A DNA stretch of 63,019 nucleotides, filler included, from Chrysochromulina tobinii (Eukaryota), in assembly GCA_001275005.1 (NCBI GenBank). It is 6 parts of 6 records of this genome, joined end to end, with 100 filler letters (N's around TTAATTAATTAA, not from the genome) between each part and the next. Parts side by side here need not be neighbours in the genome. Positions count along the whole stretch, not along the records: positions 54,568 to 60,313 come from JWZX01001018.1; 5 more parts are not named here. One strand, written 5' to 3'. The position numbers and the translations under genes were made by a program. Numbering within the stretch: position 1 is the stretch's first letter; each line of letters begins with the position of its first letter. The notes below the pieces were generated by a model, which saw only the letters and a program-made list of their open reading frames with translations, had not been told where the DNA came from and did not search any database. This document shows positions 5,103 to 63,019 of the stretch, piece by piece.

Positions 5103-7149
5103 TGTGAGAAAGGGGACTCGGCGACTCGCTCTACGTGCTGTCGAGTACGTCCGAAGGAAATGCCTGAGGCTATCCTGAGGCTGCCCTGTCAGATGGTCCC
5201 TACCGTCTTGTGCTAGTGTGTGCCCCCTGTGTGTGGCCCTTATCCTGGCTTGCGGCCCCCGGAGCGTGGCACCGCGCTCCGATTTCCTAATCGGGCGCGC
5301 GCTCGCTTCCCTTGAGGAATTGCGATCGCTTCCCGCGGAGCGCGCTTTTCTCCTCAGGCGTGAGTCGGGGGCTGCTCGTCTGTCGAAGCTCTCTGTGCAC
5401 TCCGTGTGCGACGCCTAAAGTTACTCACTACTACTCAAGTAGTCACTCTTTCCCACGTGGTATCGGTGGTGGCCCGGACTACCTCCTGCCCATCCAACTT
5501 CGACCGATCGAAAATGTCAACGCTATCCGCTGCAACGACGCACGACCATGAGTCACCGTCAACACCGACCTACTCAAACGGCGAGCCCATCCTCTACACG
5601 GGCAATCCCGCCGAGCTCACGGGCATCCTCGAGGCCCTCGACGAGCATTTCATCAACAACGGCCTCTTCCAGCCGCTCCTCACGCACGGCGCGGTCCTCT
5701 TGCGCAATGGCAAGGTTGCCGTCGATTCCTTCACTTCCGCAACATTTCTCACCGACCCGGCCTACGCGGCAGGCGTGGGCTCGTTCGCAGAACCGTACGA
5801 ATCCGCCGCGAAGAGCGTCGCCAAGTACAACGCGACCCCGGCCGGCAAGAAAACTGCGCTCACCGAGGTGACGACCAAGCCGACCGACTTTGACACCCAG
5901 TTCATCGTCTCGCCCGAGATGTGCAAGGCGGAGGACAACAAGCTCCTCAAGACCGTGCTCAGCATCATCCCCAACGAGACCATCGCCGGGCGCCTCCGTA
6001 CCGCCGCCAAGGGCAGCGGCCGGACCCTTCTCAACCTCCTCCGCACGGAGTCCACCAAGGCCAAGCCAGCTGACACGGCCCTCGTGGAAGCGACGTTCAA
6101 CGCCCATGTCCTCAACAAGCTCCACGGGGCCCCGATCACCGCGGAGAATCTCGCGGCCTTCGTCGAGAAGTACAAACAACTCGAGGCCATGTTGCCGAGC
6201 AAGATGAGGAAGCAGCAGACCGACGGCACCAGGCTCGAGATCATCAACCAGCTCGCGCAGGTCGACCCCAACATCTGCGAGCAGTATGAGCTCCGGATGA
6301 CCGCGTTGGGCACCAGCGCGCCCTCCAACATGGACGACGCCGTCGCGCTCATCGAGGAAATCCTCCGCACGAGAGCAGCGCGCGCCAAGCTGGCCGCACT
6401 GTCCGGCGGCGCCAAGCAGCTCGGCCTCGTAGCCGGCAACGCGACCGTCGCCGACCGCGACCCAACCAAGAACAAGCCCGGCGACGACAAGAAGACCAAG
6501 AAGTCCAAGCCGCCCCGCCGCCCCGACGGCAGCAGGAAGGGCGAGCTCATCAAGTGGGTCGAGGGCATGGACCTCTGCAAGTGCGGCGGCAAGCACCTCT
6601 ATCGCGACTGCCCCGACCCGAAGACGAAGGCCTGGTTCGACGCCTCCAAGGCCAAGAAGGACGCCGAGAAGGCGAAGACCGCCCTCGCAGCCGACGCCGC
6701 GCCGGCGGCCGCACCAGCATCGGCTCTCGTGTCCGCTAGCGGAGGGGTTGGCGCCACGACCATGGTGACCATCTCCGGTGATCACACGACCGACGAGCGC
6801 GCCCTCCTTGCCCAACTTTCCGGCTTCCTCAACTCCGCCGCGCCGTCGAAGGTCGTGCACTGGAGCGAGACCACGAAGGCCGCGCACTCCGCCAATGTTG
6901 CTAAGACCAAGGTCATTGACGGCGTCGTGCAACTCGTCGAGCCATCTCCAGACGAGCTCTCCCTGGCCGCCGCCCTTGGGATCACCACCGCCGACTTTGA
7001 TCAGAGCAACACCCGTTGCCCCGACTTCGTGCCTGGGTGCTCGGGCACCTGCGCCCGTCAATACGAGACCGATACCGCCGACAGCGCGAGCTCCGACGAT
7101 GAACCCGATCCGGCCCCGCGCTGCGAGGAGTGTGCCGACAACCCCGATG
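5103..7149 (+). mobile_element. 5' part of an LTR retrotransposon (probably Ty1/copia), truncated at contig end
   Basis: Putative LTR at 5103-5457 with imperfect terminal inverted repeat (TGTGAGAAAG...CTTTCCCACG), directly followed by a TGGTATC PBS-like site at 5458 and then a gag ORF. Confidence 0.7.
5514..7149 (+). CDS. Gag-like polyprotein (partial)
   Basis: Long ORF after the PBS, with a Lys-rich region and zinc knuckle variant CKCGGKHLYRDC. Runs into the N linker. Confidence 0.7.
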
Positions 7150-49653: not shown

Positions 49654-49806
49654 TTCCTTCGCTGTGGTGCGGCGACGTCACACGAGACCGCGTGAAATCA
49701 CGTGAAACACACGCGCCCATTCTGATCGAGAGTTCTTTATCTCTTTGACGAAATGACGAAATTCGGTGAACCCGCGGTCGCGCTCTTCTCGCCCGCTTGG
49801 GGGAGG

Positions 49807-52800
49807 ATGACCGTATGGGCCTTGATGGTCGCCGTGGCGGGCGCCGCTCCGACCCGCCTGCGTGCCGACGGTAGCGATTGGCTCTCCTTTCCTCGTTTCG
49901 CCCTCCCGCACATGGCGCGGCCGCTCTTCACCTGGGCACCTGGCTCGCAGACTGCATTCGCCCTCGAGCTCTCGGATGCAGCAGGCCACCTCGTCTGGGC
50001 ATCTGGCAAGCAACTTAGCACGGAGCCATCGGTGCGTTATCCGCCCTCGGCACCGGCTCTCCAATCTGGCACGTACCATTGGCGCGTCGCAACGTACTCC
50101 GACCCATCGTCAGAGCCCTCCCCCTTTGCTTCTGCCGCCCTCCATGTGGCCATCCCGCCCGCCGATTGGTCGATGGCTGCTTGGCTTGGCGGCGATGCTG
50201 TCAACGTGTACACCGCATCCTTCCAAACCGGGCCCAAGTCGGCGCTCGCCAGCGTGGTGCTGTACGTGTGCGGCCTCGGCTACTCCTCCGTCCGCTTCAA
50301 CGGCCAGGACCTGAATGTGCTCACGACGGCGCCTTGGACGAACAACGCCATCGTGAACGGGTTCTCCTCGCTCGATCTGACGCCGTGGTTGGCAGACGGG
50401 GGCGATGCGAACCACGTCATCGTCTCGCTCGGCTACGGCTGGCGCGACACGAATGTCTTCGCAGTGCGGGACGACGACTCGAAGGATCGCCCTGCCTTGC
50501 ATGCAAACGCTCATCACGGCGCCACGGTTCCCCACAGGTGCGGGACGACGACTCGAAGGATCGCGTGGGTGCTGTCGCGCGCATGCTGCGAGCCAAGGTC
50601 CTTGCGACGTTCAACAACGGCTCGACGAGCGTGCTCACGTACACCGGCGACGGGACTTGGCAGGCGGCCGCGGGCCCTAGCACGGCCGACTCGGTCTACA
50701 ATGGCGAGAGCTACGACGCTCGCATAGCGGCGGAGCTCTTTGACAGCGACGGCCGTGCCGCTGCGCGCTCGTCGTCGCGCTGGGTGCCGGCACCTCGCGT
50801 CGACGGCCCGGCTGGCCGGATGGTCCCTTGGTCGGTGCCGCCCGTCGAGGTGCTCGAGACGGCGCCCCACACCTGCGGACCTCTGACGATTGCCTCGGAT
50901 TGCATGCTGATGGCCTCCCTCGTTGCATGCAGGTGCTCGCGACGGTGCCCCCGGTGGCGATGACGACCCCCAAACCCGGCCTTTACTTGTTCGATTTCGG
51001 AGTGCGAGCCTCCGGCGTGACGCGCCTCAAGCTGGTCGCCTGCCCCTCTGGCGCGACTCTTCGGATCCGGCACGCGGAGATCATGCAGCACGCGGGGCTG
51101 CCCGACCTGCAGACGGTGGACCCGACGATGATCTACACTGGCAACCTGCGCTCTGCCGAGGCGACGGACGTGTACACGTGCGCCGGTGGCAGTGCGACAT
51201 GGGCTCCTGCGCTCACTTACCACGGCTTCCGGTTCGCCGAAGTCAACGTGAGTGGCGCCGCTGGAGTCATCCTGACGATGGACAGTGTGGAGATGGTGCA
51301 CTTTGCCTCGGCCGTACCGCAGCGCACGCAGGTCAACTTCACCTCGGCCACGCTCAACAAGCTCCAGGCGATGGCTGTCGGCGCCCAGCGCTCCAACTTG
51401 ATGACGATCCCGACCGACTGCGACCAACGCGACGAGAGGCTCGGATGGTTGGGTGACGCGAACCTGAGCGGCGAGTCGATGGCGCTCAACTTTGACATGT
51501 CGGCGTTCTTCAGCTGGTTTCTGCTGTGCGTGCTCTCGCGGCCGAGATCAGACCCGTGATTAGACCGAGATCGCAACCGAGATCAGACCCGTGATTAGAC
51601 CGAGATCGCAACCGAGATGAGGCCCGTGATGGCCTCGGATGGCCCCTGATGGCCACTGCTGGCCTCGGATGACCTCCCTCATCCACTGATTGCCTCGGAT
51701 GACCTCCCTCATCCACTGATTGCCTCGGATGACCTCCCTCATCCACTGATTGCCTCGGATGACCTCCCTCATCCACTGATTGCCTCGGATGACCTCCCTC
51801 CACAGGTACGGTATCGCGACCGAGGTCGGGCACGGCGTCAACGGCAGCCTGCCCGATGTCGTGCCCTTTCTGCGTTACGGCGGCCGGCCGGCCGATGTGT
51901 CGTGGAGCGCCGCCATGATCACGCTGCTGCACGTCGGATGGAAGCAGTACGGCGACCTTCGCACGTATCGCTCGATGGGCGACGAGGTCGCTGCCCAGTT
52001 AGCGAACGTGGCAGTGCAGGCCGCCGCCGGCCTTGGCAAGATGCACACGCCGTACGGGGATTGGTGCCCCCCGCCGGAGAAGATGGGAGGCGGCCAAGGG
52101 CCCAAGCCTAGCGAGCCTCTTACCTCGGCCTTTTCGTATGTGACGATGGTGAAGCACGCCTCCGAGCTGGCCGACGCGTCCGGCGACGCTGCGGCCGCGA
52201 AGACGCTCGACGACCTCGCGGCGAAGCTCACCGATGAGTACAATGCGGCCTTCTATCACAAGGAGAGCGGCTCGTACGACACGGGCACGCAGACGGCGCT
52301 CGCGCTCGGCCTCGCCATGGGGGCCGCACCGGACACGAAGGTGACTCAGAAGGCACTCCGGACCCTGCCTCGCATGCAAACGCTCATCACGGCGCCCTCG
52401 TTCCCCACAGGCGACTCAGAAATTACTCCTCGACAAGCTCGACGCCAAGGGCACGCACTTTGACACGGGCATCATCGGGCTGAGCCAGCTCTTCCCGGTG
52501 CTCGGTGCGGCCGGGGCGCACGATACGGCGCTTGCGGTGCTCGCGCAGACCGACTACCCTAGCCTCGGGTTTGAGTTTGCGAATGAGCTGGAGAAGACCA
52601 CGACCAACCTGTGGGAATTGCCCGACGCGCCGGCAGAGGGCACCGGCATGAACTCGCGTAACCATCACATGTACTCGTCGTACTCGTCCTACCTGGTGCA
52701 GAGCGTCGCGGGGGTGCGCTCACCACGGCGCCCGAAAGCGAGGCATCTCCCTGCATGCAAGCGCTCACCACGGCGCCCGAAAGCGAGGCATCTCCCTGCA

Positions 52801-53627
52801 TGCATGCGCTCACCACGGCGCCCTCGCTCTGTCAGGTGCGCCAGGTCGCGGGCAGCCACGGCTACAAGCACCTCGAGCTGCGCGCCGCGAGCGCGCGCGC
52901 GCTGCATGGTGCGTCGGCCACGCTCGACCTGCCCTCAGGCGAGCTGAGCTTTCGCTGGAGCCGATCGGGAGGGCGTCAGCACGACAAGGTGAGTGAGGGC
53001 GACAGCGCCGAGTTCGACTGCGGCCCGCGCGGCGGCGTCATCGAAGCGGTCGAGTTTGCGTCGTTTGGCACTCCCGCAGTGCGACGTCGCTCCGCAGTGG
53101 GCGGGATCAGCGAGATGAGCGAGATCCCGCCGCTGGAGGCGCACCCGCTGTGCCATGCGCCCCGCTCGGCCGAGGTACTCACGTCCGCCTGCGTCGGGCG
53201 CCAGCGCTGCTCCATGCTGGCGACGCGCGAAGCTCTTGGACTGGACGCTTCCAAATTTGGAACGGAGCTCCTCGCCAACTGCTCCGCGGCGGCCAAGCGC
53301 CGTGGTGGGCGCCTCGCCGAGTGGTCCGACCCGCTGCGCTTCTGGGCGACGGTGCGCTGCTCGGTGGCCGCAGAGTCCCTCGACGTGAGCACCACGATCC
53401 CTCTCGGGGTGAGCGCGACGCTTGTGCTGCCTCTGCGCGACATGCGCAACCCTGTCGTCGTCGACGCGACGAGCCAACCAACCATCTTCCCACAGCGGAC
53501 CTTCCCCAGCTTCGTCAATGATGCGCTTGTGCTGCTGGACGATCAGGAGTTGGGCCGCGCGCTCGCTCTCGAGCTCAAGAGTGGTGAGTATACGCTTGTC
53601 CTCCAGGACGGCGCTGTCGAGGTGTGA
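49807..53627 (+). CDS. Secreted alpha-L-rhamnosidase (GH78) with a SUEL/Gal-lectin-like domain; 6 exons
   Basis: Signal-like MTVWALMVAVAGA; YHGFRF, IPTDCDQRDERLGWLGDA, YGDWCPP, TTNLWE, NSRNHHM. Introns at 50464-50537, 50850-50932, 51526-51805, 52341-52410 and 52714-52835 each restore the frame. An alternative ATG lies at 49753. Confidence 0.9.
50464..50537 (+). mobile_element. Introner-like intron A
   Basis: First 27 nt are identical to the first 27 nt of the next exon. Last 48 nt match intron D at 44/48. Confidence 0.75.
50850..50932 (+). mobile_element. Introner-like intron B
   Basis: First 19 nt match the next exon start at 17/19. Shares GATTGCCTCGGAT and CCTCCCTC with intron C. Confidence 0.65.
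51526..51805 (+). repeat. Intron C, filled by 35-bp x2 and 30-bp x4.7 tandem repeats
   Basis: (CCGAGATCAGACCCGTGATTAGACCGAGATCGCAA)2; (TGCCTCGGATGACCTCCCTCATCCACTGAT)n at 51661-51800; GTGCGT..CACAG ends. Confidence 0.85.
52341..52410 (+). mobile_element. Introner-like intron D
   Basis: Starts GTGACTCAGAA versus next exon GCGACTCAGAA. 3' part nearly identical to intron A. Confidence 0.75.
52714..52835 (+). mobile_element. Introner-like intron E (45-bp unit in tandem)
   Basis: GCGCTCACCACGGCGCCCGAAAGCGAGGCATCTCCCTGCATGCA twice plus a partial copy. Same core as introns A and D. Confidence 0.7.
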
Positions 53628-54567: not shown

Positions 54568-57500
54568 CCCCTCCTCCCCCTCCTCCCCCTCCTCCTGCCG
54601 CGCACTCGCCCTCTGCTTCTTTGCGGGTAGCTCACTGTCTGGGCTGGGCAGCAGATGGGAGTAGCCCTGTCTTGTCGCCCATTCTTCAAAGGCAGGGTCA
54701 GATCCAGCGCGGTATGAAGAGTCAGCTCCAGCGCGGCACGAAGGAAAGGATCCGCCACTGATGGCACCGCCCATCCCAACGCTGCTGCTCGAAGACGGGA
54801 ACCCACCTCCAGAGGCACCTCGAGCTGCATCAACCTTGGCCATCACTCCGAAGATGCCACAAGTCTCTGCTATCCCGCCCGCCCCGCCTAGCAGGCTGTT
54901 GCTCCCAAACCAACCCGATGTGCTATGTGAGTATGTGTTCTGCGGATTCTCGTGGTGCATGGCCTCTCCAACTTGCCGACCGCCAAGCTTGTATAGCGCA
55001 GCGGCAAGCTCAGGGTCTTTCTCTCTTGCCCTCTTTCCTGCTTGGAGCAATTCACCACCTAGCTTCGCCTGCTCCGGGTTCATCGGGGTCTTGCCCTTCG
55101 GCGGCACGTGCACGCGCTCGCCTTGCACGGGCATTTGCGACCGCGGGGAGAAGGAACCGTCCGCGAACGCAGTGCGGTGTGACCTGCCCGGTGGTCCGCT
55201 CGGTGGTCCGCTCGGGACGCTGACACTGCTTCTCGCCGACTGCATGTAGTACATCATATCTACCGTTGGGCTGCATGGGTACACGTTCTTGTCTTGCACG
55301 TCTACAATCTTGCCAACTTGCCCTCCAACCCGTGAACCGGTCTCGATCCGCACCGTCCCTCGGTCGTTGCTCCAATCGACGATTATGCCGTTTTGCCCGT
55401 TGTAAATACAGTCAGCCCCGTACAAGCCTCCAACTTGCACGCGCTCGCCTTGCATGAGACCGTCCGGCGGTGGCGGCTGCTGCAGCTCTGGCGGTGGCGG
55501 CTGCTGCGGCGGAAGCGCCAGTGCTTGTTGCAGCTCATCGTCGTCGTCAGTCATTCTCTGTTCCATGTCGTCAGGAATCTCCTCATATGACCCAGGTCTC
55601 CCATCCCGTCTCATGATATGACGAAAATGCTCGACGTTGTGGTCGAGACTAAGGCTCTGCGGCCGAGCCGCCGGCAAGCACCACTCCTCTCTGCCGAAGA
55701 GAGGCTCCTCGGTGCCCTGCAGCGCTCTGAGAACATGGCAGCTGACTCGCTTCTTCTCACCTAGGAGCACAACGTGGATCCAGAGCCTATCTTGATCGGT
55801 GTTGACCATTTGCAGAGCACGCAGGCCACACGGATCTTCACGGAGCAGGCTGTGAGCCCTCACACGAAGAGCATCTCGCATTCCAGGGTCGACCAATGCG
55901 TCGAACGCCCGCTGCTTATCATCAGCGGGCGTGTATCGAGGGCCAATCATGCCTTGGACCGCCGCCTCACGCACATTCCCTTCCGAGTCTTCGAGCCTTG
56001 CGACGATCGCGGGCGCGTGCTGAGAGAGCGTCGCCGCATCCAGCTTGCCAAGAGTCGAGACCGCCGCCTCACGCACATTCCCTTCCGAGTCCTCGAGCCT
56101 TGCGACGATCGCGGGCGCGTGCTGAGCGAGCGTCGCCGCATCCAGCTTGCCAAGAGTCGAGACCGCCGCCCTACGCACATCCCGATCGGAGTCCTCGAGC
56201 CTTGCGAGCAGCTCGGCCTGACTCGGCACAGGGCTGGCCAGCGCCCCAGCGCCGTCTTGCAATGCCTCCGACGCCGCTTCGTGCGTCTTGCGCACGCAGT
56301 CCTCGATGCCATCTCGATCATCTAGCCGTGCCACATGATCTCCGAGCTTGCAGCACCGAATGCCCTCGTCTAGGAGCGGTGCGCAACGCTGCCGCGCGAG
56401 CTGAAAGAGCGCATGCGCCGCAACTGGATGCATCAGCAACACGAGCAGGACCGACCCGCCACGCTTCCACACCATGTCGATGTCATCCACACCGACACCA
56501 GAAGGCCAGACGCTTGACTCTGTCAGCTCCTTCACTTTGGCCTCGATGATGTCCTCGACGGATGAGGTGCTGCTGCTATCACTTGGTGTCTCGGAGCCAA
56601 GGGTGACGACCATACTATCATCCCGAAGCGACGGGCTGATCGCGATTAATATTTCGCAGTTGCGGGTGCCCACCCGCGCCATCCGCCTCCTTCCAGGATG
56701 GTAGAGCTCGATCTGTACGAGTCGATAATCACCTTTGCAGATCTCGTCATCCAACAGCCCGGCCAGCACTTTACGCAGCCTCAGTACGCGCGCATCGTCA
56801 AAGGCGGAGATGTCTCCTTCAATGCACAGCGTGATCATCTCATGCGGTATCTTCGACGGCGATGTCAACGTGGTGCTGGTGCCGTCGGTGCTGGTGCCGG
56901 CGCCGGTGCCGGGGGTGTTATGGAGTAACATAGCTTGAGACAGCCAGTGCTTCGTAATCGGCTGGGCTCCAGGCATGTCGACGGGAGCTGGCAGGTGATA
57001 CGTCGCCATGGATTGCTGCAGCAAGTACTGCTTCAGAGCGGCTGCCTGCATGTCGATGGACGCGAGCTCAGCCTGACAATGTTGTGCCTTCCAGCTCTCT
57101 GATGCCGCCAGCTTGATGGTTTCCGCCGCCTGCTGCACATCAACTGCACTTGAGCTCGCAGCCGATGCGGCACAGGTGGCCCTATCGGCAGAGCTAGTCG
57201 CATCGACTGCGGCAGCATTCGCGCCCATGGTATGCAGAGCCGCATCTTGCTCGTGCCCGCGCGCCTCGGCCGCTGCTGCGCGTGCCTCATCCCGAGCCGC
57301 CAATCCTTGCTCCGCGTTGTGCATGGGGCGGCTCTCCAGCTGCCCTCGGAGACGTTCGCGAGCAGGTCGTCCGATGGGCTCGCACTGGATGTGATCGAGG
57401 ACCGCCCTCAAGGGCTTCTCCAGAGCCTCAATGGGCCGTGCCTTGCCATTTGGCCCCAAGTCCCCCCGAACACTGTGCACCGCCCAGCCGACCACAGCCC

Positions 57501-58290
57501 CGCTCGATGCGTTGACGACCGGCCCGCCGCTGTGTCCCGAGTAGATCGTCACCCCCAATTTGAGCCAAGCTCCAGAAATGTCTTTCTCGAAGCGGCCAGC
57601 GTAGTGTCCACGACAAGTGGTGGACGTGCGCTCAGCACCGAAGCCCATATCATTTCCTCCCTGGTGGCTGCCCTGCCCGTACCCAAGCAGCACGAGTTCG
57701 TGGCCCTCGACAAGCTCAGGTTCTGACGTGCGGCCCAGAGGCAGTGCGCCAGCAGGCTCACCGTCTCGATGCCATGGAAGCTCAGATGCGAGCCCTTGGA
57801 GCGGCCCACCCGTCCACTCACACAGCTGGAGAATGGCAAGGTCGATCCTCTCGTCGTTGTACACGATCATCTCTCGGGCTTCGGCAGCAGCAGACCAGGT
57901 CGATGGGATCGGGTGGGGATACCTGGGCTCGAGAGGCGGCTGGCTAACAAGCAGCAGCTTTGCGCGTCGAACCCAACGCACTCTCTCACCGATGCCGACG
58001 CCAATGGCAACGCCGTGATCCTTCGGGTCCAAAGGCGATGCGTGGAAACAATCGATAGCGACGTGGGCGCAGGTGCACAAGAGCCCACGATCCAGATCAA
58101 CTATCCAGCCGCTACCAATGAGAGCATTATCATCGGGTGCAAGGCTCTTCCGCACACCAATTGCCACCACGCCGCGCTGCCAGTGAGGTACAGTTGAGGA
58201 CATGAGCCGAGGTTCCCCCTTGTGCGGAACTCCACTGCAGAACTCCGTGGGCCTCCTGTGGAGCTCCGACGCGGGGTGATAGGCCGCCAT
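54568..58290 (-). CDS. Multidomain protein: trypsin-like serine peptidase + Ala-rich coil + TRADD-N-like domain + HEAT repeats + unknown domain + SH3/KOW-like segment (C-terminus truncated)
   Basis: Triad motifs TCAHV, DLAIL, GHSGGPVV. 34-aa HEAT repeats (ARLEDSEGNVREAAVSTLGKL). First in-frame ATG at 58290. Confidence 0.75.
55957..56207 (-). repeat. 102-bp coding tandem repeat (~2.5 copies, HEAT)
   Basis: Units start at 55957, 56059 and 56161 on the + strand and are nearly identical in nucleotide sequence. Confidence 0.9.
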
Positions 58291-58735
58291 CTCTTGGTCC
58301 GCCACGGCAGCGATGTGAGTTGTCGGTACTCCATGGCAGATCGCGCTGTGTTGGGCACGGTGTACAATTGTATTCGATGACCCAGGACGGCTTCGACCGT
58401 AAGTCGTGACGACGTCGACGACGACGCAACAATTCAATTCAATTCAATTCAAGTCGCAATTAACAATCGCACCTCGCGACCGGCCGCTATAAAACAGCCC
58501 CGCGCCACTCCGCCACACCACGAGACCTCGAGACAATCACAGTGGATCACCGGTACCGGGTACCGTGCACTGTGCACACATCTCTGGTGGATGGCACCCC
58601 CATGGCAGCGGTCCACTCCCCTCTACAAACAGCCGCGCGGGCTGACCAATATCCATGAATACCCTCGAGCCTCGAGATCAGTCATCAGATGTGGAGGGCA
58701 TGCGTGGCTCAGGTGAGGCTGACGCTACCCTACCC

Positions 58736-60109
58736 TTACTCCTCATCAAGCGCGCGCAGCGTCTCTCGATATTGAGCCAGCTCGGCGCGCACGCGTGCGA
58801 GGCGTGCTGCAAACTCCTCTCGCGCCTGCCCCCTTGAAGTAGGTGCTTGGTCCACCGCGCTCAGACTTCGGTAGCTACCTTCGTCGTCGGGCGTCAGAAG
58901 ACGCTCCCAAATGCTCCAAATCTGGTCGAAATCCAATTCCAAGAGATCGTCAGTTGACATGTCCGACTCGGTGAATGTCATCATCATTTGGTTGGCCTCC
59001 GCGGAGCCATTTCGTAGAATCTTCGGCCTAGGTTCGAGGCAGCCGGGTATCTCCTCATAGTCGTCCGGCCCAGCCTGACTCATGACATGACGAAAGCACT
59101 CGACGTTGTGTTCGATGCCATTATTCCTCAGCAGACTCTTATTCGGCAAGCACCACTCCTCTCTGCCGAAGTCGCTACCCTGCAGCGCTTTGAGTACGCG
59201 GTAGCTGACTCGCTGCTTGTCCGGCTGGAGTACAACGTGGATCCACAGCCGTATCTCTGTTTTCCGCTCTGGATCAACGGTCGAAATTTCGACCATTTGC
59301 AGCGCACGCAGGAAACAAGGATTAGCATCGAGCAGCTTGCGCGCTCTTTGACGAAGAGCATCTCGCATTCCAGGGTCAACCCATGCGTCGAACGCCCGCT
59401 GCTTATCATCAGCGGGCATGTACCGTGGCCCTGGGCCAGGAATCACGTTCATGACTGGGCTGTGATCGACCGCGCGCTTGGAACTTGCGGGCGCGGGAGC
59501 GGGCGGATGACTTGGCATCCCCCCCGAGCGGGCGCTGCTCCACATCTCTTGGTCCGCCTTGGCAGCGATGTGAGCTGCCATGTTATCTGCCGCAATGTCC
59601 GGAGCGAGCACGCCGTAATCGATGCCGGCGTCGTGTGCGCCAGGGGCGGTGACCGGCGGCGGCGGCTGCATCTCGCGTCGGCGCAGGGACGGCTGTGAAT
59701 CGTGATGCCATTCGCTAGCAGCAGCACCCTCTGCTGACGTTTGGGCAGCTTTGAGCGACCTAGGAGGGGGCGACGGATATTCGCCCGTTGGCACAACGAT
59801 TAGAAGATCATCTGTGGAGATCTCCTCGAGGGCGTCCATCTCGACGCGGCCCGCCTTGGAGTCCATAAGAAGAATGATGTCGTGGCCGTCACTGCTCTCG
59901 ATACCCAACTTTTCAGCGCACCGTGCCTTGAAGGCTGCAAACGATGCATCCGCACCCAGCATCACGACCTTTGATTGAGCACCATCCGCAGCCAGCCGCA
60001 CAAAGCACCGAGCCGCCATGGCAAAAGTGGGCCGAAAACTTGGCCCCCCCCCCGAGCGGGCGCTGCTCCACATCTCTTGGTCCGCCTTGGCAGCGATGTG
60101 AGTTGCCAT
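58736..60109 (-). CDS. Protein with a ubiquitin-like (KHA/PB1-like) domain, the unknown domain shared with the neighbouring protease, and a C-terminal coiled-coil
   Basis: SKVVML..ASFAAFKARCAEKLGI...EMDALEEISTDDLLIVV; GPRY.PADDKQRAFDA.VDPGMRDALR...FGREEWCLP. Start uncertain. Confidence 0.65.
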   Translation of the reverse strand: MATHIAAKADQEMWSSARSGGGPSFRPTFAMAARCFVRLAADGAQSKVVMLGADASFAAFKARCAEKLGIESSDGHDIILLMDSKAGRVEMDALEEISTDDLLIVVPTGEYPSPPPRSLKAAQTSAEGAAASEWHHDSQPSLRRREMQPPPPVTAPGAHDAGIDYGVLAPDIAADNMAAHIAAKADQEMWSSARSGGMPSHPPAPAPASSKRAVDHSPVMNVIPGPGPRYMPADDKQRAFDAWVDPGMRDALRQRARKLLDANPCFLRALQMVEISTVDPERKTEIRLWIHVVLQPDKQRVSYRVLKALQGSDFGREEWCLPNKSLLRNNGIEHNVECFRHVMSQAGPDDYEEIPGCLEPRPKILRNGSAEANQMMMTFTESDMSTDDLLELDFDQIWSIWERLLTPDDEGSYRSLSAVDQAPTSRGQAREEFAARLARVRAELAQYRETLRALDEE

Positions 60110-60313
60110 GTTATCTGCCGCAATGTCCGGAGCGAGCACGCCGTAATCGATGCTCTGAGCCGTCTGCACTTGCACTTGCAGCGCGCGAGCGATTTGCTGC
60201 CCGACGAAGGGGTGTGGCGCTGCGTATTTCAGTGAGTCCGCTTTCGTAAGAAACTGCGATGCACGTGTTCACAGCTTGGACACTTACACTGAGCCTTCGC
60301 TTCTCGCAGCTAA

Positions 60314-60657: not shown

Positions 60658-63019
60658 TCATGTCGCCTTGTAGCCGTACTTGTTCGGCTTGCGCCGCCCG
60701 GCCTTGAATTCCTTGGTCCCTCCGCGATGCCCGCGCTTCTTGATGCCGCTTGTCGAGCCGCTGCCCCCCTCCGGACGCTGCATCGAGACGTTCTCGTCGC
60801 CCGCCGTCACCTCGTACTCGTCGTCACCCTCTGCCTCACACGCCGCCATCGACGCCTCCTGCTCGGCGCCGTCGACGCCCACACAGCCCGTGACGACGCC
60901 GTCGTCGCCGCCCTCGAGCGCTCGTGCAGCCCCGCTGCCGCTGCCGCCCGCGCCGACGTCGTCACGCATGGCACACCCTACAGACACCTTCTCTCTCTGC
61001 TGCTCCCTCTCTGCGACCTGCGCCTGCGCCGCCGCTGCGGCATCCATGCTACTCGCAAGCACGTCATGCGCATCACCAAACATCATGTCACTCATGCACT
61101 CAACGTCCTCTCTCGTCGCGCTCGACTCGCCCGAGAGCTCGTCATCCATCTCAAGCCCGCACGCTGCCCATCTTGCCGCGAGTGCCCTCGGGCTCTCTGC
61201 CATCGGCGCGTCGGGCCAGGCAGATCGTCGCACTGCCTCCTCATCGTAGTCCTCATCATCATCGCCCATCTGCGGCAGGTCGTACTGTTGGGTCGCATGC
61301 CAGGTTGGCGCTCGGCGCACCGCCTCGTCGGCCTCAGCATCATCCTCGTCGTCATCATGCGCCGCGCCGTAGCTCTGCGTCGCCTGTAGCGGTGGCGCTG
61401 GCGCATCGTCAGCATCCATATCGTCGGGATCGCTGCCGAGAAAAGCCCGCGCCGCGTCGACGCCGCCCTCGTCCATGCACTCGTCGGCGCAGTCCGTAGT
61501 CTGCGCTGTTCCCGCCGCCCCGCCGCCATCCGGCATCAACCACGCGCGCGCGCCCACCGCTGACGCCTCGCGCATCAGTAGCGCCGCCCGCTCGCGCCCT
61601 CCGTCGAGCAGCAACGCGCGCTCCTCCTCGTCAGGCTCCGCCAAATTCTCGAAACCACGCTCGATGCGCCGCTCGACCAGCTCGCCCAGCTCGCGCTCCT
61701 GCTCGAGTCGCGCGTACCTGAAGCTGCCCTCCTCCCTTGCGAGATCCGCCGCCGCCTTGGCGCTCGCGCGCCTGCTAGCCTGCGCCTCGTACCTGCTCTC
61801 TGCGGTGCCGTGCGTGCACGCGATCGTCTCGCCGCCCACGATGCGCACGAAGCGGCCCGGCCGCATCTCGTCGCTCTTGTGCCCAGCCTTGAAGTCGGCG
61901 AGGCCCATTGGCACGGCCACGCTGCCGTCAGTGGGATAGAAGGTGCCGCGCAGCTGCTCGTCGCAGACTCGCTCTTTGCCGCCCATGAAGTGGCTCAGAT
62001 AGTCCTTTCCGTATGCGCCGCGCAGCCCAGCGTGCCCGCGCCGCAGGAGGTCGACCCATGCGCTGTACTCGACGCGCAAGTGATCGATGACGACGGTGTT
62101 GAGCGCGATGGCCCTTTTGACGTACCACCGGTTGAAGTCGCGCCGAGCTCCGGCGCACTGCTCGTAGTCGAACTCGCCCGAAGGGCGCGCCTCCTCCCAC
62201 ACCTCCTCTCTCTCGTCGTCTTCGCCCTCGACCGCGTCGTCGTCCTCAGCAGCGCTCGGAACCGCGCCTGCGCGCAGGCTGTCCATGACGGCCTCCTTTA
62301 CTGAGGACGCCGCTGGCAGCGCAAAAGCACCAGCGAGTGCCTTGGCGGCCAGATATCTGCGGTATCGACCCAGCTCTCCCGGCTGCCGCTTTGCCAGCAT
62401 CGCGACCCTTGCCCAGGCAAGCTCGATATGCAGATCGCCCTCGCCCTCGCCACCTCCTGCGCGCGGTGCACAGAGCATGGTGGCGTGCTGCTCGAGAGCG
62501 CTGCAACACGCCACCCTAGCCGCGTCGCTCATGCCGTGTGAGCACTCAAAAAAGTGAAAGAGGTCGCACCGACACTCTTGATGACACGCCGAGCACTTGC
62601 ACAGCGGCAGCGTCTCACCCTCGACCTGCGAGCCGTCGTCGATGCCGTCGCCCAGCTCAGGCAGGACGCTCTGCGTGAAATTGCGCAACAAGTGCCGCAT
62701 GCCGACGCGCGTGTACTCGAACTGCCCGCCAAACCCGCCGCCCCTCTGCATCGCGAGCGGGCCCTGGATGCGCCGGTCGAAGATCTGCATGCCTCTCGTC
62801 GGGTCGAGCCCTTCGCCGCCGTAGTCGAAGAAGGGGGTAGCGTACAGTCTGCCCTCGATGAGCTCCGCCGATAACTCGCCGTCCGCGAAACAGCCCAACT
62901 CGTACTTCGCCTGCTCGAAAAGAGCCTTGGCCTGCTTGCACGTAGCATCCTCCAGAAGCTCTTCGCCGAGCCCAGCGTGCAGTGAGCCCCTGGACAAGAA
63001 GACGAGCACGTCGATCTCC
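60658..63019 (-). mobile_element. C-terminal part of a long ORF, probably a retroelement (LINE-like) protein
   Basis: Cys/His cluster CKCSACHQECRCDLFHFFEC resembling a LINE ORF2 C-terminal zinc knuckle, an acidic tract, a basic tail and 3' direct repeats. No RT domain within the window. Confidence 0.45.

Follow-up and report, generated by a model that had tools for sequence, protein, structure and literature searches.

The window analysed here is a 63,019-nucleotide stretch of the haptophyte Chrysochromulina tobinii (GCA_001275005.1), a string of contigs with 100-base spacers. One 5.7-kb contig (54568–60313, no strand assigned), bounded by N/TTAATTAATTAA spacers, carries two open reading frames (ORFs) on the minus strand, proteins 1 and 2, which share a domain that we call X. 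Structure prediction suggests that X is an undescribed domain with an HUH Rep fold from which the catalytic residues are absent, and X recurs next to peptidase, helicase, phosphatase and NLR-like domains in other proteins. The tandem occurrence of X genes is real, and the exact pair on this contig is probably an assembler join of two paralogous loci.

Copy 1 of X (55555–55944, minus strand; protein 1 residues 783–912) has no helical tail; copy 2 (59027–59431, minus strand; protein 2 residues 197–331) is followed by one. The two copies are identical at 82 of 139 residues (E 2e-43) and at 295 of 412 bases (72%). The original prediction that both ORFs share an unrecognised domain held up: X matched no Pfam family at E≤1, no PADLOC or NCBIfam family of note and no Atlas entry, and the X core had no PDB sequence match, a second search matching the helical tail only. 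Structure comparison, which had been proposed with that prediction, gave a Rep fold. The predicted model has the Rep layout, with the motif I and II positions on strands 1 and 3 and motif III on helix 3, and its fold neighbours are DNA-binding Rep and origin-binding domains. The resemblance could reflect a common alpha/beta arrangement, X being an independent ferredoxin-like adaptor or toxic effector that heads NLR-like proteins. We regard this as improbable, and the least credible of the readings considered, given that two aligners and two libraries concur on Rep and that the Rep matches span model residues 5–131, including the extra helix and the last strand, whereas PII-type matches end near 108. 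At the sequence level, comparison of X with 87 Rep domains by profile (hhalign) gave a probability of 0.08%, and a Pfam scan of 15 X rows at E≤1 found no Rep family.

The Rep catalytic motifs are missing from X. Two histidines, or a histidine and a glutamine, two apart on strand 3 (HUH/HUQ) were found in none of the 15 X rows; a helix-3 tyrosine, as in the catalytic YxxK, was found in one, and there the lysine at +3 is absent. Seven residues are invariant in the 15 rows (K10, R12, R23, K72, W93, R114 and Y125). A profile comparison of X with the middle domain M of protein 1 (below) was negative. The X tree is poorly resolved, with three of 12 inner branches supported, and no direction of transfer was drawn from it.

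The original prediction had also proposed a survey of X architectures, and this returned trypsin-M, HEAT, phosphatase, SNF2, ankyrin-CHAT and CHAT-NB-ARC(-LRR) partners. A word-based search gave 12 longer X relatives among 203 candidates, in which X, mostly with a helical tail of ∼100 residues, lies at the C-terminus of a dual-specificity phosphatase (P0011, P0012), an SNF2-type helicase (P0013, P0014), trypsin-M (P0005), a HEAT protein (P0010) and P0009, which is GHKL-like by eye with no Pfam match. When 1.84 billion representatives were searched in full with a profile, 16 matches came up, of which 15 were kept; P0020, a plant Rx_N repeat protein, was discarded as a spurious match of the X profile. 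In the distant relatives from the profile search, X is N-terminal: P0016 is X-tail-ankyrin-CHAT (the ankyrin part is weak, and CHAT was assigned because it is 54% identical to the L013 gene), P0023 is X-tail-CHAT (CHAT E 9e-6), P0018 is X-tail-CHAT-NB-ARC and P0019 is X-tail-CHAT-NB-ARC-LRR. Five of five cases have the CHAT His-Gly and Cys motifs, and two of two have the Walker motifs. X identity falls to about 27–43% at the head of these CHAT/NLR-like proteins.

A metagenome scan gave 18 loci, X being encoded in 22 of 238 pattern matches. Several X copies per locus were seen in L004, L007 and L013; X is usually terminal and fused to effectors, and is internal in protein 1. In L008, an X-tail gene directly precedes an ankyrin-CHAT gene, and in L013, a trypsin-M-X gene lies between the two; X-tail and ankyrin-CHAT are thus separate genes in these loci and a single fused protein in P0016. 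The heading of CHAT-NB-ARC(-LRR) and ankyrin-CHAT proteins by X, together with the ankyrin-CHAT genes that follow X genes in L008 and L013, lends partial support to the earlier proposal of a conflict or cell-death module built by domain shuffling. Short DNA blocks recur across genes: a 128-bp linker, a UIM-like block that protein 1 has in common with the ankyrin-CHAT gene, and one intergenic block. P0006 and P0008 are each a patchwork of blocks from both window X types, although these records could be assembly joins too. The last tail helix of L009 (10654–10700) and L016 (5976–6022) has 85–96% DNA identity between copies that are otherwise 70–75% identical, which hints at recent exchange or strong constraint.

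The middle domain M of protein 1 (56257–56847, minus strand) is predicted to have an RRM-like (ferredoxin) beta-alpha-beta-beta-alpha-beta fold, as in TRADD-N, with a low-confidence insert. According to PMC8195603, the uS motif of TRADD-N is a serine, sometimes a cysteine, in the turn between strands 2 and 3. In M, this turn has serine in eight of nine rows and cysteine in the ninth, preceded by glycine or serine (in protein 1, a Gly-Ser turn with Ser613). M occurs as a single copy between constant and variable parts: after trypsin-M comes HEAT, X or PUB-ankyrin, and M is also the middle part of DEAD-M-PARP. No Pfam match was found for the nine M rows or their sub-segments. The top Atlas cluster held PF13820 (32%) and PF20694 (19%) with a score of 0.85 over 150 features, a lead only; TRADD-N was not among 50 matches listed in one M search, which excludes nothing. 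We keep M as predicted TRADD-N-like: the segment so described in the original prediction gains from fold class, turn motif, position and the Atlas lead. In different records, one codon (56213–56225) joins trypsin-M to HEAT, X or PUB-ankyrin, making this a precise exchange point. Outside the window, P0076 (18 members) has the order DEAD/ResIII helicase-M-PARP-EF-hand, with a weak PADLOC match to HamB.

Two further explanations of X bear on these data. In the first, X would be left over from an element that encoded Rep (Replitron-, Helitron- or CRESS-like), either selfish or without function, spread by recombination in an unstable genome and tolerated at gene ends. The unrelated fusion partners, the mosaic copies and weak purifying selection would fit such an origin, as would the Rep-like domain followed by ∼95 helical residues, which is the Replitron/RepB layout in PMC10288648; one Replitron locus in C. 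tobinii is reported there. We nevertheless think a relic quite unlikely. The homology of the SNF2, phosphatase and protein 2 copies does not extend past the stop codon, they have no terminal repeat, poly(A) or element end in common, and all X copies are in frame. Both SNF2-X and phosphatase-X are retained in two diverged lineages each (90% and 85% identity) with 27–76 members per cluster, and X stays conserved, down to the identities given above, at the head of CHAT/NLR-like proteins. A transposon-derived domain had been named beforehand as a result that would count against a cell-death module, and the predicted virus/transposon Rep fold of X does weigh partly against that reading.

In the second, X would be a sensor or decoy that binds invader DNA (single strands, origins or hairpins) or mimics Rep, directly triggering the fused CHAT, trypsin or NB-ARC. 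It would then resemble the origin-binding domains of papillomavirus E1 and SV40 large T, and the DNA-binding fold neighbours, the invariant residues and the fusions to SNF2 helicase and NLR-like proteins all favour it. Viruses, virophages and Polinton-like elements are said to be known in C. parva. X has no net positive charge, however: K+R is about equal to D+E in most rows (21/21 and 20/22 for the window copies). The N-terminus of NLR-like proteins is also usually an effector or adaptor slot, and pattern scans, which reach close relatives only, found no X relative in viral contigs (6 and 52 matches). The same type of scan found none in bacterial and archaeal genomes (144 matches). On balance, a direct sensor or decoy seems unlikely.

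We tentatively favour, at a little short of an even chance, a reading in which X is a shuffled, catalytically dead Rep-fold module that serves as an effector-associated coupler of protease effectors in algal anti-invader cell death. For ancestry, binding and function, we infer the following. X would derive from a virus, plasmid or transposon that encoded Rep, and would have lost nicking activity while self-association was kept. A sensor with repeats or NB-ARC would seed the assembly of X-bearing proteins, M would flip trypsin from closed to open, and the infected cell would die or be arrested through proteolysis by trypsin or CHAT; new domain combinations would come from recombination between short blocks that genes have in common. 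A bolder version seems doubtful to us: that haptophytes domesticated a viral or transposon Rep endonuclease as a dead sensor-adaptor heading caspase-like NLR proteins and joined it by recombination to trypsin-TRADD-N effectors, so that a unicellular eukaryote would possess a diversifying, inflammasome-like antiviral death system.

The original prediction took the two ORFs for a tandem pair as arranged in the genome. That arrangement was not confirmed: the contig consists exactly of parts of two loci that other assemblies show separately. In locus A (L001–L003), a mannonate dehydratase gene lies upstream of trypsin-M-HEAT-X-KOW, and protein 2 is absent. Locus B (L013–L015) has the order protein 2, trypsin-M-X with no HEAT repeats, ankyrin-CHAT gene, its two X copies (trypsin-M-X and protein 2) being 97% identical in DNA. 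Between 60313 and about 56898, the window agrees with L013 at 3415 of 3415 bases, and between 57067 and 54571 it agrees with L001–L003 at 2497 of 2497; the 5′ half of protein 1 is of locus-B type and the 3′ half of locus-A type. Allele comparison places the switch from B to A within a stretch identical in both loci (56898–57068, no strand assigned): 19 of 19 diagnostic columns are A-type from 56898 down, and all are B-type from 57068 up to 58320. At seven more columns (57762–58017), L003, L014 and L015 show alleles of the opposite locus; therefore, assemblers mis-phase the shared part. Both allele sets are present in one DNA run, where contigs over the shared part have a depth of about 81–105, against about 50 for the unique parts; the tool warns that depth is no copy number. 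A and B are separate in six of six long assemblies (three of each), and in none of the 18 fetched loci does protein 2 lie beside a HEAT-bearing trypsin gene.

These comparisons indicate that the exact gene pair is very probably a collapsed-repeat join, made by the assembler, of two real loci, and the attractive architecture of the window should be read with that caution. The tandem X pair as such still stands, since locus B has it and L004 and L007 have other forms of it. A chimeric contig had likewise been foreseen as a finding that would tell against the proposed module, and the probable A/B composite does so in part. That the window is instead a true A/B recombinant in its strain is a minor possibility: both halves are 100% identical to loci assembled separately, and the long assemblies, the allele swaps that reveal mis-phasing and the single run with both allele sets and raised depth in the shared part all speak for a join. 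Weighing against a join is a named Chrysochromulina parva gene model, P0095, in which a B-type linker and HEAT repeats occur together; such recombinants are therefore on record.

Protein 1 is a 1240-residue ORF (54571–58290, minus strand, like the features that follow) that runs open into the gap with no stop, in the order trypsin, TRADD-N-like, HEAT, X, UIM-like, KOW-like. Its trypsin-like peptidase domain (57487–58116; Trypsin_2, PF13365, E 9.5e-14) has the complete His-Asp-Ser triad that had been claimed (H76, D150, S254; motif positions), and the trypsin cluster includes a C. parva gene model. The HEAT repeats (55957–56211, Pfam), absent in locus B, were confirmed and have a 102-bp period and 94.6% DNA identity over 149 bp. 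A UIM-like segment (55513–55548; UIM E 0.22) and a weak KOW/SH3-like segment (55240–55461; KOW E 0.014) are below the Pfam cut-off; the DNA block 55438–55566 around the former also opens the ankyrin-CHAT gene of locus B (blastn).

Protein 2 (58739–60019, minus strand, with its parts) is a 427-residue ORF comprising a putative ubiquitin-like region, linker, X and helical tail. The 90% cluster of a near-identical relative of protein 2 includes a C. parva gene model of 427 residues, and with the trypsin cluster this led us to assign the contig to C. parva or a close relative. For the possible ubiquitin-like (beta-grasp) domain at the N-terminus (59780–60019), the OTU1_UBXL match is below threshold (E 0.15–0.18). 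The tail of about 95 residues (58739–59026) follows X in most relatives, and the coiled-coil earlier assigned to protein 2 is its last long helix. The tail occupies the position that the oligomerisation domain has in Y1 Reps (PMC10288648). The 128-bp linker block (59498–59625) is repeated at 60026–60153 (94.5%) and partly at 58288–58322, and also opens the locus-A trypsin gene.

Several further observations were made around these loci. The Ala-rich linker at 57099–57191 differs in length by 72 bases between A and B in both DNA- and RNA-run contigs. Just upstream of protein 2 in L013, a 177-bp perfect direct repeat (712–888 and 5768–5944) encloses about 4.9 kb of DNA that is rich in repeats and poor in ORFs, and the window contig ends inside the repeat (60226–60313); this unit is possibly a non-autonomous insertion resembling a long terminal repeat element, or an assembly repeat. 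Also in L013 (13099–17142), on the opposite strand and adjoining the CHAT gene, an ankyrin-repeat protein and a neighbouring ORF share a 288-bp block (94.8%), forming another shuffled pair. Elsewhere in the window, the next contig has a 786-residue open frame (60658–63018, minus strand) that matches no Pfam family at E≤1 and is acidic in its C-terminal half, and 49726–53627 (plus strand) holds an intron-containing gene, alpha-L-rhamnosidase-like by eye, with short tandem repeats in its introns.

With the EAD/Death-like and TRADD-N systems of bacteria and animals, as described in PMC8195603, these proteins share a small, multi-copy terminal domain fused to peptidase effectors, a single-copy TRADD-N-like domain between constant and variable parts, and the partners caspase-like, trypsin, STAND, ankyrin and PARP. 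Here, however, the host is a unicellular haptophyte, the repeated domain is of predicted alpha/beta Rep fold rather than a helical Death-like bundle, and M has an insert of ∼60–85 residues. The main text of PMC8195603 does not contain the word haptophyte, and its source tables might list haptophyte TRADD-N proteins. With Y1 HUH Reps (CRESS-DNA virus Rep, pMV158 RepB and Replitron transposase; PMC10288648), X shares the predicted fold and the layout of a Rep domain plus ∼90 helical residues; unlike them, X has no HUH/HUQ, YxxK, motif-I threonine, helicase, terminal repeats or sequence similarity, and is fused in frame to host genes. Unlike the papillomavirus E1 and SV40 large T origin-binding domains, X is cellular, protease-fused and not basic overall, and lacks an SF3 helicase. 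The X-CHAT-NB-ARC-LRR architecture and a repertoire diversified by shuffling recall the NLRs of plants and fungi with variable N-terminal or integrated domains, although the N-terminal domain here is undescribed. Candidate ROCO immune receptors of brown algae (PMC11378527) are also diversified by shuffling; here, in contrast to them and to NLRs, it occurs within long single ORFs, not one-repeat exons.

Between 45 and 57% of the words were present in six RNA (metatranscriptome) runs, and contigs from three RNA runs cover both genes. They also cover ORF-poor DNA in L013, and because of this, the coverage was discounted and rejected as evidence of expression. Partial literature searches found no description of domain X or of such proteins in haptophytes, no paper naming receptors or executioners of haptophyte virus-induced cell death, and no description of a Rep-fold domain in cellular immune-type proteins.

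Viruses reportedly end haptophyte blooms, and virus-induced cell death is said to occur in haptophytes. The locus family offers concrete candidates, CHAT-NB-ARC-LRR, ankyrin-CHAT and trypsin-TRADD-N proteins linked by one new domain, from a cultured alga with isolated viruses. If the reading proposed here is true, TRADD-N/EAD logic would reach beyond bacteria and animals, and X would be a case of a Rep-fold domain serving in cellular immune-type proteins.

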